Part shown: in pieces, positions 10,928 to 14,577 of the stretch
How positions within the stretch are numbered: position 1 is the first letter of the stretch
How the letters are laid out: the number at the start of each line of letters is the position of its first letter
NCBI RefSeq assembly: GCF_030384885.1
Contig: NZ_CP128613.1
Strand: one strand, 5' to 3'
Source: Escherichia coli
Lineage (GTDB): Bacteria; Pseudomonadota; Gammaproteobacteria; Enterobacterales; Enterobacteriaceae
Length of the DNA stretch: 64,000 nt
Notes under the pieces: model-generated
Databases searched by the model: none
What the model saw: the letters and a program-made list of their open reading frames with translations, nothing else
What the model was told of the DNA's origin: nothing
Made by a program: the position numbers and the translations under genes

Positions 10928-11314
10928 ATGAGCAAAACTATCGCGACGGAAAATGCACCGGCAGCTATCGGTCCTTACGTACAGGGCGTTGATCTGGGCA
11001 ATATGATCATCACCTCCGGTCAGATCCCGGTAAATCCGAAAACGGGCGAAGTACCGGCAGACGTCGCTGCACAGGCACGTCAGTCGCTGGATAACGTAAA
11101 AGCGATCGTCGAAGCCGCTGGCCTGAAAGTGGGCGATATCGTTAAAACCACCGTGTTTGTGAAAGATCTGAACGACTTCGCAACCGTAAACGCTACCTAC
11201 GAAGCGTTCTTCACCGAGCACAATGCCACCTTCCCGGCACGTTCTTGCGTTGAAGTTGCCCGTCTGCCGAAAGACGTGAAGATTGAGATCGAAGCGATCG
11301 CTGTTCGTCGCTAA
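10928..11314 (+). CDS. ridA: Enamine/imine deaminase RidA (YjgF)
   Basis: 128 aa MSKTIATENAPAAIGPYVQG...; RBS AAGGAG upstream of ATG 10928. Confidence 0.93.
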   Translation: MSKTIATENAPAAIGPYVQGVDLGNMIITSGQIPVNPKTGEVPADVAAQARQSLDNVKAIVEAAGLKVGDIVKTTVFVKDLNDFATVNATYEAFFTEHNATFPARSCVEVARLPKDVKIEIEAIAVRR

Positions 11315-11380
11315 TCTCTTTCAAAAAGATAATCCAGGTTTCGCGCCTGGATTATCTGATTCAACCACGGAGGGTTGAAG

Positions 11381-11836
11381 ATGGCTAAATCCCGTTTCAC
11401 AGATAAGCAAATTGCTGAAATTTTACAGCGGTCAAAAGAGGGGGCATCTAATAAGGAGCTTTGTGAACACTATCAATTTAGCGTTAACACGCTGCGGCGC
11501 TGGCAAGAACAGCACGCTGACGGCATCAGAAGCGAATTAAAAAAAATAGAATCTAAAGCACAGATCGTCTTTCTGCTTTTCATTGCTATTGTCATTATAC
11601 TCACGCTTATATTTGGTAAACCTACAGGTGGATGGGCAATACCGCCTTTATTACTCTATTGTGTTTATTATATCCGCCTGTATCGCAACATCTCCGCCAG
11701 ACATATAAAAAAAGAAGACATTTTTCTCTCTCGTTCTGTTAATAACAGCTATAGCGCCCTTTATAATTTGAGCTGGACGTTTATTTGTTTTTTTATTTTT
11801 GCAGTAATCTATTTTTTTATTCAGGTGTTTTCGTAA
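11381..11836 (+). CDS. Hypothetical protein: N-terminal transposase-like HTH fused to a two-helix membrane segment
   Basis: ATG 11381 with GGAGGG RBS; N-terminus (FTDKQIAEIL...LCEHYQFSVNTLRRWQ) resembles IS3-family OrfA HTH, C-terminus hydrophobic; AT-rich. Confidence 0.5.
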   Translation: MAKSRFTDKQIAEILQRSKEGASNKELCEHYQFSVNTLRRWQEQHADGIRSELKKIESKAQIVFLLFIAIVIILTLIFGKPTGGWAIPPLLLYCVYYIRLYRNISARHIKKEDIFLSRSVNNSYSALYNLSWTFICFFIFAVIYFFIQVFS

Positions 11837-11880
11837 CAGACTGACCTGAAAGAGTATTTCAGGCCAGCTTCATCACTTGC

Positions 11881-14577
11881 TTACTGCCAGCCGTAACGAC
11901 GGCTATAGAACCCTTTCACCAACTGGGTTAACGTCATATACCCTGCCAGAATCGCAACCAGCCACGGGAAATAGCTTAACGGCAGCGCCTGCAGTTGCAG
12001 ATAACTGGCCAACGGCGAAAACGGCAATGCGATCCCGACTATCATCACAATCACGGTCATGATCATTAACGGCCACGATGCACAGCTCTGAATAAACGGT
12101 ACACGACGGGTACGGATCATATGCACAATCAGCGTTTGCGACAGTAATCCCACCACAAACCAGCCCGACTGGAACAGCGTTTGCGTTTCCGGCGTGTTGG
12201 CATGGAATACCCACCACATCAGGCAAAACGTCAGAATATCGAAGATCGAACTGATCGGTCCGAAGAAGATCATAAAGCGCCCCAAATCCGCCGGATTCCA
12301 ACGCTGAGGCTTTTGAACTTGCTCGTCGTCGACGTTATCAAACGGGATCGCCACCTGTGACACATCGTACAGCAGGTTCTGGATCAGTAAGTGTAAAGGC
12401 AGCATCGGCAGGAAGGGCAAGAAAGCACTCGCCACCAGCACGCTGAACACATTACCGAAGTTAGAACTCGCCGTCATTTTGATGTATTTCAGCATGTTGG
12501 CGAAAGTGCGACGTCCCTCAATAACCCCCTCCTCCAGCACCATCAGGCTTTTTTCCAGCAGGATGATATCAGCCGCTTCACGGGCAATATCTACCGCGCC
12601 GTCCACAGAAATGCCGATATCCGCAGCGCGTAAGGCGGGAGCATCATTAATACCATCGCCCATAAAGCCAACCACATGCCCTTCGCGCTTTAGCAAGGTC
12701 ACGATGCGTTCTTTATGCATCGGCGTCAGGCGAGCAAACAGCGTGGTGCGCTGTGCAAGATTTGCCAGTTCGTCGTCAGATAGCGTTTCAATATCACTAC
12801 CAATGACCACCTCTCCCGCGTCCAGTCCCACTTCATGGCACACTTTCGCCGCCACTAACTCGCTGTCGCCAGTAAGGATTTTCACGGTAATGCCACTCGC
12901 TTTTAATGCCTTCAGTGCCGGAGCTGTTGTCTCTTTCGGCGGATCAAGGAAAGCAATATATCCTTCGAGGATCAGGTCGGATTCATCCGCCCGCTGGTAA
13001 TCCCCTTCACGTGCTGGCAGGTATTTCGTCGCCACCGCAACCACGCGCAGCCCCTGACGATTCAGCGTATCAGTAACCCGCTTAATCTTACGCAGTATGA
13101 TGTCATCAAGCGGCACAATCTCACCATTGTGACGCACCTGCGAACACACATTGAGGATTTCCTGCAATGCGCCTTTGCAAACCAGTTGATGATGTTCGGT
13201 ATTCTCTGCCACTACCACCGACATCCGGCGACGCTCGAAATCAAACGGAATCTCATCAATTTTTTGCCAACGACTGGCCAGCGAGCGCGCTGACTCTTCA
13301 TCCGTACCTTCGAGCACCGCTGTATCAAGCAGGTTTTTAAGTCCGGTCTGATAATGACTGTTCAACCACGCGCTATGCAGCACCCGTTCGCTGGTTTTAC
13401 CGGAGATATCGGTATGATTCTCCAGCACAATTTTATCCTGCGTCAGGGTGCCGGTTTTATCAGTGCACAGAATATCCATAGCGCCAAAGTTCTGAATGGC
13501 ATCCAGATGTTTGACGATCACTTTCTGTTTCGACAGCTTTACGGCACCACGCGCCAGCGTCGAAGTGACAATCATCGGCAACATTTCTGGCGTTAAGCCT
13601 ACCGCGACCGAAAGTGCGAACAGTGCCGCTTCCCACCAGTCACCTTTGGTGTAACCGTTGATCAGCAACACCACCGGAGCCATCACCAGCATAAAGCGAA
13701 TCAGCAGCATACTGACGCGGCTAATCCCTTGCTGAAAGGCATTCGGCTCGCTTTCCTGCTCACTAACACGCCCCGCCAGTTGACCAAACCAGGTGTTGGC
13801 TCCTGTAGCAATCACCATTGCTTGTGCCGTGCCGCTCACCACGGTGGTACCCATAAAACACAGGGTGTCGCACTCCAGCGGATTGCTGTGCTCCGGCTGG
13901 CGAGTGGTAGCAGCTTTTTCCACGGGCAGAGACTCACCGGTTAACGACGCCTGAGCGACAAACAGATCCCGCGCCTGCAAGATACGTAAATCTGCCGGGA
14001 TCATATCCCCCGCCGCCAGTTTTATAATATCGCCGGGCACTAGTTGGTCTATCGGAATTTCCAGCCAGCCATTTTCACCTTTATCGTTAATTACGCGCAG
14101 TACCGTCGCGGTATTACTGACCATCGCTTTCAGGGCATCTGCCGCTTTGGTGGAACGAGCTTCCTGAATAAAGTTCAGCAACGTAGAAATAGCGACCATT
14201 AGCGCGATAACACCTGCGGCAAATAAATCTTCCGTGGCGTAAGAAATAGCACCGAGAATGGTGAGCAAAATATTAAAGGGGTTGCGATAGCAGACCCATA
14301 AATGTACCCACCACGGCGACGGTTGTTGCGCGGGTAATTTATTTTCACCATGTTGTTCGCGGGCAGATTCCACTTCCGCCTGATTTAACCCTTCCGGATG
14401 GGTATTGAACGTTTTCCATAATTCCTGTTCTGGCATCACCGCCATTTTCAGGCAATGCGCACTTAAGGACGGCGGGACCGCCGTATTCACTGTCTGCTGC
14501 GCGCCAGGCAATGGATCGCGATGAACCAGACGGGAAGGTAAATGGCGAATGAGCCGGGTAAAAATTTCTTTAAACAT
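11881..14577 (-). CDS. mgtA: Magnesium-transporting P-type ATPase
   Basis: 898-aa ORF with P-type ATPase motifs (DKTGTLT, TGDxxxxA, GDGINDAPAL). Confidence 0.97.
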   Translation of the reverse strand: MFKEIFTRLIRHLPSRLVHRDPLPGAQQTVNTAVPPSLSAHCLKMAVMPEQELWKTFNTHPEGLNQAEVESAREQHGENKLPAQQPSPWWVHLWVCYRNPFNILLTILGAISYATEDLFAAGVIALMVAISTLLNFIQEARSTKAADALKAMVSNTATVLRVINDKGENGWLEIPIDQLVPGDIIKLAAGDMIPADLRILQARDLFVAQASLTGESLPVEKAATTRQPEHSNPLECDTLCFMGTTVVSGTAQAMVIATGANTWFGQLAGRVSEQESEPNAFQQGISRVSMLLIRFMLVMAPVVLLINGYTKGDWWEAALFALSVAVGLTPEMLPMIVTSTLARGAVKLSKQKVIVKHLDAIQNFGAMDILCTDKTGTLTQDKIVLENHTDISGKTSERVLHSAWLNSHYQTGLKNLLDTAVLEGTDEESARSLASRWQKIDEIPFDFERRRMSVVVAENTEHHQLVCKGALQEILNVCSQVRHNGEIVPLDDIILRKIKRVTDTLNRQGLRVVAVATKYLPAREGDYQRADESDLILEGYIAFLDPPKETTAPALKALKASGITVKILTGDSELVAAKVCHEVGLDAGEVVIGSDIETLSDDELANLAQRTTLFARLTPMHKERIVTLLKREGHVVGFMGDGINDAPALRAADIGISVDGAVDIAREAADIILLEKSLMVLEEGVIEGRRTFANMLKYIKMTASSNFGNVFSVLVASAFLPFLPMLPLHLLIQNLLYDVSQVAIPFDNVDDEQVQKPQRWNPADLGRFMIFFGPISSIFDILTFCLMWWVFHANTPETQTLFQSGWFVVGLLSQTLIVHMIRTRRVPFIQSCASWPLMIMTVIVMIVGIALPFSPLASYLQLQALPLSYFPWLVAILAGYMTLTQLVKGFYSRRYGWQ

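Follow-up and report, generated by a model that had tools for sequence, protein, structure and literature searches.

The known system closest in layout to the protein described here is BcrR, the membrane-bound one-component sensor of bacitracin in Enterococcus faecalis, which reportedly combines an Xre-type helix-turn-helix (HTH) with four transmembrane (TM) helices and lies next to its target operon, bcrABD. In ToxR, CadC and TcpP, too, one polypeptide anchors its cytoplasmic DNA-binding domain to the inner membrane; this domain is an OmpR-type winged HTH, combined with a single TM helix and a periplasmic sensor domain of considerable size. RodZ tethers a cytoplasmic N-terminal HTH, of the Xre type, to the inner membrane by a single TM helix and carries a periplasmic DUF4115 domain; its HTH binds MreB and not DNA. 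ArnR and ArnR1 of Sulfolobus acidocaldarius are membrane-bound one-component regulators with an N-terminal HTH and C-terminal membrane helices (PMC6396743). More generally, proteins that combine a predicted DNA-binding domain with one or more transmembrane regions in the same chain have been defined as transmembrane transcription regulators (TTRs), and BcrR is listed among them (PMC10269533). TTRs are widespread, and about 57% of them consist only of a DNA-binding domain and TM segments, most of these being uncharacterised. The class is numerically large, its experimentally validated members are few, and HTH_Tnp_1 is the DNA-binding domain in 45 of its 50,302 proteins (PMC10269533).

We analyzed a window of 64,000 nucleotides of Escherichia coli DNA (contig NZ_CP128613.1), in which a 151-residue protein is encoded between ridA and mgtA (Table 1). 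With HTH_Tnp_1 and three predicted TM helices it falls within the definition of TTRs, and the cytoplasmic location that this class demands of the DNA-binding domain is predicted from the positive-inside pattern of 54 family members. The protein belongs to an uncharacterised and systematically mis-annotated family, in which the HTH of an IS3 OrfA is fused to a three-helix membrane domain. We are confident that this anatomy is correct and that the gene is real and does not encode a transposase. The function is a more tentative matter. The reading that we favor, with a probability of about 0.4, is that the protein may be a transmembrane one-component regulator, which by analogy has the layout of BcrR and is built on a domesticated IS3 OrfA HTH.

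The likeness to BcrR lies in the succession of the parts, i.e., an N-terminal cytoplasmic HTH and then a membrane domain that crosses the bilayer several times, with no extracytoplasmic domain. In contrast with BcrR, the HTH is transposase-derived, the TM helices are three and there is no evident adjacent target. The two proteins show no sequence similarity, and since their HTH belong to different classes (HTH_Tnp_1 versus Xre) we regard the likeness as analogy, not homology. Compared with ToxR and CadC, the 151-residue protein lacks a Pfam match to Trans_reg_C, has three TM helices and exposes little to the periplasm. ArnR and ArnR1 have the same two elements in the same order, but they are archaeal, their two TM helices are accompanied by a HAMP-like linker, and their HTH is of another class. 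As for RodZ, neither HTH_25 nor DUF4115 was detected in our protein by Pfam. Finally, the OrfA proteins of the IS3 family (IS407/IS2-like group) share with it the HTH_Tnp_1 domain, which aligns without gaps from Met1, and the signature R-F-T/S-x-E-Q-I ... R-W. Unlike them, it lacks a leucine zipper, inverted repeats and any programmed frameshift into orfB/DDE. Its gene is immobile and present in a single copy, and a TM helix takes the place of the zipper.

Table 1. Features of the locus between ridA and mgtA, with positions in the window and the basis of each assignment.
Feature	Position	Strand	Basis and remarks
ridA (2-iminobutanoate/2-iminopropanoate deaminase)	10928..11314	+	ORF list and PGAP annotation of identical strain; upstream same-strand neighbor
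ridA 3' hairpin, AGATAATCCAGG / CCTGGATTATCT, 7-nt loop, no U-tract	11327..11357	+	Repeat search, RNA fold
Small hairpin TTCAACC / GGTTGAA around the Shine-Dalgarno sequence	11360..11379	+	RNA fold; Escherichia loci only
CDS, 151-residue HTH-membrane protein	11381..11836	+	ORF list; PGAP 'transposase' (WP_001130089.1)
IS3-OrfA-type helix-turn-helix (HTH_Tnp_1), residues 2-51, predicted cytoplasmic	11384..11533	+	Pfam, OrfA alignment, AlphaFold2
TM1, residues 60-78	11558..11614	+	Hydropathy up to 3.1; AlphaFold2 single helix 35-78
TM2, residues 85-101	11633..11683	+	Hydropathy, AlphaFold2; less hydrophobic; conserved YC..YI motif
Conserved basic loop, residues 102-129, predicted cytoplasmic	11684..11767	+	Mean of 5.2 K+R across the family
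TM3, residues 130-149	11768..11827	+	Hydropathy, AlphaFold2; C-terminus predicted periplasmic
Hairpin CTGACCTGAAA / TTTCAGGCCAG between the convergent ORF and mgtA	11841..11867		Repeat search
mgtA (Mg2+-importing P-type ATPase)	11881..14577	-	ORF list and PGAP; convergent downstream neighbor

The open reading frame (ORF) starts with an ATG at 11381 and ends with the stop codon at 11834-11836, and there is an alternative in-frame TTG start at 11375. The original prediction of a small AT-rich ORF between ridA and mgtA is thus borne out, with a CDS of 37.5% GC at 11381-11836; the coordinates it gave (11315-11880) are right for the entire ridA-mgtA spacer but not for the ORF itself. Strain 2013C-4282 is 100% identical to the window at this locus, and PGAP calls the same 151-residue CDS there. 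The GC content drops to 34% in the membrane half of the gene, whereas it is 53% in ridA and 52% in mgtA. This AT-richness is found in the Escherichia CDS but not across the family, the orthologues of Klebsiella and Citrobacter having 40-50% GC. Hence, the low GC content of the gene is specific to Escherichia. The ribosome binding site was rightly described as good: the Shine-Dalgarno sequence GGAGGG (11369-11374) is placed 6 nt upstream of the ATG, and the motif CCAYGGAG in this region is retained in most orthologous loci of other genera.

The 72-nt spacer after ridA has a stable fold (-27.7 kcal/mol, z = -5.5 versus shuffles), in which a search of Rfam found no known RNA. It includes the perfect 12-bp stem-loop previously reported upstream of the ORF, formed by AGATAATCCAGG (11327-11338) and CCTGGATTATCT (11346-11357), with one additional G-U pair. 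The stem-loop is real, but it is not a feature of the HTH-membrane gene. Its stem, ATAATCCAG/CTGGATTAT, is conserved 3' of ridA in Escherichia, the Citrobacter freundii complex, Klebsiella spallanzanii and Citrobacter NCU1. E. coli K-12, which has no such ORF, keeps a diverged and compensated version of it, and the hairpin is missing from Salmonella, Superficieibacter and the loci of a second group of family members described below, all of which have the ORF. Since it is kept without the gene and missing from some loci with the gene, the stem-loop belongs to ridA, as a 3' element that is either a weak terminator or an RNA-stabilising hairpin. We also considered this stem-loop as an operator for the HTH and rejected the idea, because ATAATCCAG/CTGGATTAT tracks ridA with or without the HTH-membrane gene. 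The hairpin between the ORF and mgtA is, from its position only, probably a bidirectional terminator.

A promoter-like site was found upstream of ridA (10862-10890) and none between ridA and the ORF. Because no such site separates the hairpin from the ORF, read-through from ridA is the simplest route of expression that we can propose. In Escherichia, transcription would probably proceed across the ridA hairpin, which lacks a U-tract, and translation would begin at the strong and conserved Shine-Dalgarno sequence.

The resemblance of the first 50 or so residues to the HTH of IS3 OrfA was confirmed. The best Pfam match of the protein, for which Pfam gives HTH families only, is HTH_Tnp_1 (residues 2-51, E 1.4e-8), and all of the 54 aligned family members match this domain. 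BLASTP aligned residues 1-57, without gaps, to residues 1-57 of a genuine IS3-family OrfA from a Sphingomonas plasmid (35% identity, 70% positives, E 7e-12), and tblastn gave matches to IS3 transposase genes on plasmids. The identity to real OrfA proteins is of 35-42%, and the likeness stops at residue 57, where the leucine zipper of OrfA starts. In the AlphaFold2 models the helices of the HTH are at residues 8-19, 24-31 and from 35 on. The HTH is the best-conserved region of the family (0.76 versus 0.52-0.62 for the TM helices), and its dN between genera is 0.07-0.25, versus 0.28-0.46 in the membrane half. Residues K19, E29, F33, S34, R39, R40, W41, H45 and E57 are invariant in the family. 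Five of these, in or beside the third helix (S34, R39, R40, W41, H45), are unchanged even in paralogous lineages, which speaks for a conserved HTH ligand.

The two or three hydrophobic helices proposed for the C-terminal part turned out to be three, by Kyte-Doolittle hydropathy and by AlphaFold2, with the approximate limits given in Table 1. In two AlphaFold2 runs (pLDDT about 75), the third HTH helix and TM1 are modelled as one unbroken helix (residues 35-78). The linker between them has about 15 residues and is a rigid helix in the model, so the HTH would be held very close to the membrane. TM2 and TM3 form a bundle in the model, and the loop joining them has low confidence (pLDDT about 42). 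The topology prediction, which had been suggested as a check, places the HTH inside. More precisely, the mean number of K+R among the 54 family members is 5.2 in the TM2-TM3 loop, 1.0 in the TM1-TM2 loop and 0.24 in the C-terminal tail. Since this pattern fits the positive-inside rule, the HTH and the basic TM2-TM3 loop are predicted to face the cytoplasm, with nearly nothing in the periplasm: the predicted exposure amounts to a 6-residue TM1-TM2 loop and a C-terminal tail of 0-12 residues across the family. After the HTH, the cytoplasmic TM2-TM3 loop is the most constrained region, with the consensus R-x-I-S-A-K-H-I-x-E-E-N-I-F-L-S-R-S-G-R-G-A-N-N-A-F-Y, and R102, R118, Y128 and W132 are invariant or nearly so across the family. 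The Escherichia proteins diverge at near-invariant positions of this loop (G120V, G122N, N125S, F127L). Pfam has no family over the membrane half, a PDB sequence profile search with the protein gave nothing significant, and we found no similar solved or predicted structure beyond the protein's own family.

Every named member of the family is labelled 'transposase' by PGAP and UniProt, with the electronically inferred GO term 'DNA transposition'. The original prediction had noted that no catalytic domain or terminal inverted repeats are nearby, and our searches with Pfam, NCBIfam and for repeats agree with it. Pfam identified no DDE/rve domain in the protein, and there is neither an adjacent ORF able to supply one nor an orfB. 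The NCBIfam model transpos_IS3 covers residues 10-53 only, with 16.1 bits where the cut-off is 160. Between positions 11200 and 12000 there are no flanking inverted repeats, the only matches being two local hairpins and short A/T runs. No leucine-zipper coiled coil follows the HTH, as the alignment with OrfA ends at residue 57, and the position of the zipper is occupied by the strongly hydrophobic TM1 (residues 60-78). Among the 442 E. coli genomes with the gene, the median is one place per genome. The gene is always chromosomal, the sole 'plasmid' copy being a chromosomal block from bdcR to treR that was mislabelled or captured, and its ridA-adjacent site is identical across at least six genera.

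Profile searches delimited a small and coherent family of 83 proteins. Intact orthologues are found about 70 bp 3' of ridA in E. albertii, E. whittamii, E. marmotae, Salmonella enterica, the C. freundii complex, Citrobacter sp. NCU1, K. spallanzanii, Superficieibacter electus and several metagenomic contigs. The profile search of contigs used narrow patterns, and the number of species it gave is a lower bound (at least five). The family also has a member in Pseudescherichia vulneris (50% identical, AFDB). The orthologues next to ridA are 52-60% identical to the protein of the window, the corresponding values being about 90% for pyrI and 87-94% for mgtA. Full-length frames are retained in four species of Escherichia and in five other genera. 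Pairwise dN/dS is 0.12-0.23, and it is below 1 in the HTH half and in the membrane half alike. The synonymous divergence of the gene matches that of the neighboring genes; its dN is 0.046, versus 0-0.002 for the neighbors, i.e., the protein evolves about 20 times faster. Lack of conservation as a coding frame had been named beforehand as an outcome that would refute the prediction. The frame is kept from Escherichia to Salmonella, Citrobacter and Klebsiella, and because it is conserved across genera we conclude that this is a real gene. The earlier idea of a domesticated IS fragment fits as well, given the single copy, the synteny kept across genera and the purifying selection on the gene. Judged from these sequence comparisons, it is a functional, vertically inherited chromosomal gene.

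The second group of proteins (39-44% identical, 153-161 residues) occurs in three contexts unrelated to ridA: in one the gene follows a cheV-like gene, in K. aerogenes it lies upstream of an alpha-2-macroglobulin gene, and in Leclercia it separates an ABC transporter operon from a nemA-like gene. The ridA-mgtA setting thus holds for the locus in the window and for the orthologues at ridA, but it is not intrinsic to the family. Because the second group sits elsewhere, we take the linkage to ridA and mgtA as a matter of ancestry and not of functional requirement. The presence of related lineages in three unrelated contexts, as well as a TRAP transporter that intervenes between the gene and mgtA in the C. 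freundii complex, weakens the case for a functional tie to ridA or mgtA.

Within E. coli, the gene is present in 442 of the 5426 complete genomes and has two alleles, one with at least 99% identity to the window (about 42 genomes) and one that is 92% identical to it (about 397 genomes, SE11 among them). In the genomes lacking the gene, K-12 included, the spacer is 205 bp long and contains the diverged ridA hairpin followed by REP/BIME-like sequence. Since sister species and sister genera have the gene at this site, its presence is ancestral and the REP allele arose by loss. The gene is dispensable, and about 92% of E. coli have lost it. Truncated or frameshifted alleles (109-141 residues) recur in E. 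coli clusters, a Salmonella-like contig has a frameshifted copy, and TM3 of S. enterica is short and divergent. A 'partial transposase' remnant in WB61 has Ns at the junction, a possible assembly artefact, and was excluded as evidence of deletion.

If the protein is a membrane-bound regulator, the OrfA-type HTH, of about 57 residues, would run on as one long helix into TM1 at the point where the zipper of OrfA would follow. The membrane helices would take over the role of the zipper in dimerisation, the HTH dimer would bind a specific DNA site from the membrane, and a signal may be sensed inside the bilayer or via the conserved cytoplasmic loop. The conserved HTH, with third-helix residues invariant even in paralogues, speaks for such a regulator, and so does the fact that proteins made only of an HTH and TM segments are an already documented class (PMC10269533). 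Several observations count against it. We found no inverted repeat shared upstream of the family members across the four genomic contexts, and no conserved partner or target gene across them. The comparative search identified no operator, as the only strong palindrome nearby is the one that tracks ridA. The linker between the HTH and TM1 is short and rigid, there is no promoter-like site between ridA and the ORF, the Escherichia proteins are changed at near-invariant positions of the loop, and most E. coli have lost the gene, of which truncated or frameshifted alleles also exist. Our search of the literature found no publication on the gene, its WP accessions, STM4457 or neighboring tags, or on a membrane-tethered transposase-like HTH, and no expression evidence.

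The alternative that survives best, although we consider it fairly unlikely, is that the gene of Escherichia is a decaying relic, i.e., an ancient fusion with IS3 orfA that used to function, has little or no role today and is being lost. Its absence from about 92% of the complete E. coli genomes, where REP/BIME sequence is found instead, would be expected of a relic, as would the recurrent truncated and frameshifted alleles, the frameshifted Salmonella-like copy and the short, divergent TM3 of S. enterica. The replacement in Escherichia of four near-invariant loop residues, the roughly 20-fold faster evolution of the protein relative to its neighbors and the atypically low GC content point the same way. 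However, a relic accounts poorly for a dN/dS of 0.12-0.23 within Escherichia, membrane half included, or for the essentially identical and intact 92%-identity allele shared by about 397 E. coli genomes. The full-length frames in four Escherichia species and five other genera, as well as the conserved Shine-Dalgarno sequence, also argue against decay.

It is unlikely that the HTH is instead a protein-interaction module, which by analogy with RodZ and MreB would make the protein a small membrane scaffold or adaptor. In the model, the short and rigid connection to TM1 keeps the domain at the membrane surface, neither an operator nor a conserved neighboring target gene was found, and the conserved cytoplasmic loop could be a second interaction surface, all of which a scaffold would explain. 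Yet, to our knowledge, HTH_Tnp_1 domains bind DNA in every characterised IS3 OrfA. Moreover, the N-terminal region has a net positive charge (10.7 K+R versus 8.9 D+E), the conserved R39-R40 pair sits in the third helix, and there is no likeness to the RodZ domains HTH_25 and DUF4115.

We find it quite improbable that the protein modulates the transposition of IS3-family elements in the host, as a membrane-bound look-alike of OrfA that binds the ends of insertion sequences and acts as a decoy or immunity factor. OrfA itself regulates transposition in this family by binding the ends of the element, as in IS911, and the HTH of our protein is clearly descended from an IS3 OrfA, with which it aligns from the first residue. 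The third helix is near-invariant across unrelated contexts, which suggests that the target is not local to the gene and would suit a decoy. On the other hand, the identity to real OrfA proteins is low (35-42%), the zipper with which OrfA contacts OrfAB is gone, and no cognate insertion sequence was identified.

It is very improbable that this is a phage-defence protein or a small toxin acting on the membrane, either of them autoregulated through the HTH. The protein is indeed a stand-alone small multi-TM protein that is AT-rich and patchily distributed, with a weak PADLOC match to DrmC (HTH only, E 6e-4) and weak PHROG matches to HTH domains of terminase small subunits and transposases. But these PADLOC and PHROG matches are restricted to a generic HTH, there is neither an antitoxin or effector partner gene nor a prophage or island context, and the gene is in stable vertical synteny beside housekeeping genes. 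Lastly, we practically dismiss the view that this is a transposase or a part of an active insertion sequence, as the databases state in their names and GO terms throughout and as HTH_Tnp_1, the sole Pfam match, might suggest, given the absence of a DDE/rve domain and of orfB, the IS3 score of 16 bits against a cut-off of 160, the lack of inverted repeats, the occurrence of one copy per genome, at a syntenic site that stays the same from genus to genus, and the fact that two thirds of the protein are membrane-embedded.

The mislabelled gene occurs in heavily studied bacteria, namely Salmonella enterica, the C. freundii complex and about 8% of E. coli, and relabelling it takes away a false mobile-element call near ridA, pyrBI and mgtA. 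Its presence/absence polymorphism in E. coli offers ready-made near-isogenic comparisons. Should the HTH bind DNA, as in the regulator that we favor, the family would be a clean bacterial case of domestication of a transposase domain into a transmembrane one-component regulator. A bolder proposal, which we consider distinctly unlikely, is that an OrfA module was captured once in an enterobacterial ancestor, became fused to the membrane domain and tethers either the ends of IS3-family elements or a membrane-controlled regulon to the inner membrane. In the first case the host would have a 'membrane sink' that restrains transposition, and in the second an intramembrane or lipid signal would act at the membrane to control a chromosomal regulon. 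If either version were true, Salmonella, Citrobacter and part of E. coli would have a previously unrecognised class of regulators derived from domesticated transposases.

In K-12, the interval between ridA and mgtA that holds the gene in the window (11315-11880) is replaced by a 205-bp spacer (L003, 1566-1770) with two REP-like palindromes, i.e., a BIME, and the same replacement of gene by spacer is found in about 92% of complete E. coli genomes. The site is constant, and the gene is cleanly either present or absent there. At one locus (L005, 4457-5136, GCA_053006925.1), the ORF was kept after ridA while mgtA, mgtL, and treRBC were deleted, leaving a 30-aa remnant of mgtA followed by nrdD. Loss of mgtA thus leaves the ORF in place beside ridA.

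E. coli strain WB61 has a 3' remnant of the gene (L035, 829-994), called a partial 'transposase' pseudogene by PGAP, with N bases at the junction, and what looks like an internal deletion could be an assembly artefact. The 93.8-kb 'plasmid' pMTY18781-2 (L018, NZ_AP023207.1), recorded as non-mobilizable, contains the chromosomal block bdcR-bdcA-yjgH-pyrLBI-ridA-ORF-mgtA-mgtL-treR. Either a segment of the chromosome was excised here or the record was misassembled or mislabelled.

In the Salmonella enterica orthologue (L024 and L025, 5001-5447), the loop is divergent, reading 'RRWDISSS' where the family has 'KEENIFLS', and TM3 is short and weakly hydrophobic. The same gene is frameshifted at a further locus (L011, 5001-5441), and the S. 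salamae orthologue retains the canonical form. Among the proteins retrieved by the homology search, P0018 (258 aa) consists of five tandem HTH_Tnp_1-like repeats matching KPR..EEQILKILQQAK.G.S...LC..HGIS..TFY.W..KY, an unusual multi-HTH array.

Signals in and around the gene and in the second group of relatives (39-44% identical, in unrelated contexts)
Feature	Sequence	Location	Strand	Remark
ridA 3' hairpin stem	ATAATCCAG / CTGGATTAT	window 11327-11357; L006 4942-4970; L014 3945-3974; L016 3892-3918		
7-bp hairpin	TTCAACC / GGTTGAA	window 11360-11379		encloses ORF Shine-Dalgarno sequence
Sigma-70-like match, 10/12	TTAATA-17-TATAAT	window 11739-11767	+	inside ORF 3' end
Bidirectional terminator-like hairpin, strong	AAAAAGCCCGT / ACGGGCTTTTT	L028 4873-4902; L033 4875-4900		Leclercia-type context

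The sigma-70-like match, which would read antisense into the 3' end of mgtA, is probably a chance occurrence in AT-rich DNA. The hairpin around the Shine-Dalgarno sequence was seen in Escherichia loci only and could limit translation initiation of the ORF. In the Leclercia-type context, the second-group gene is preceded, at a distance of about 100 nt, by the terminator-like hairpin, which falls within a 400-bp 'empty' intergenic region and suggests the presence of an unannotated small transcript in that region.

The hairpin downstream of ridA has no U-tract, and the sequence of its stem is conserved between genera despite the divergence of the flanking non-coding DNA. Its role may go beyond that of a simple terminator, e.g., as a site in the ridA transcript that is bound by a protein or an RNase.
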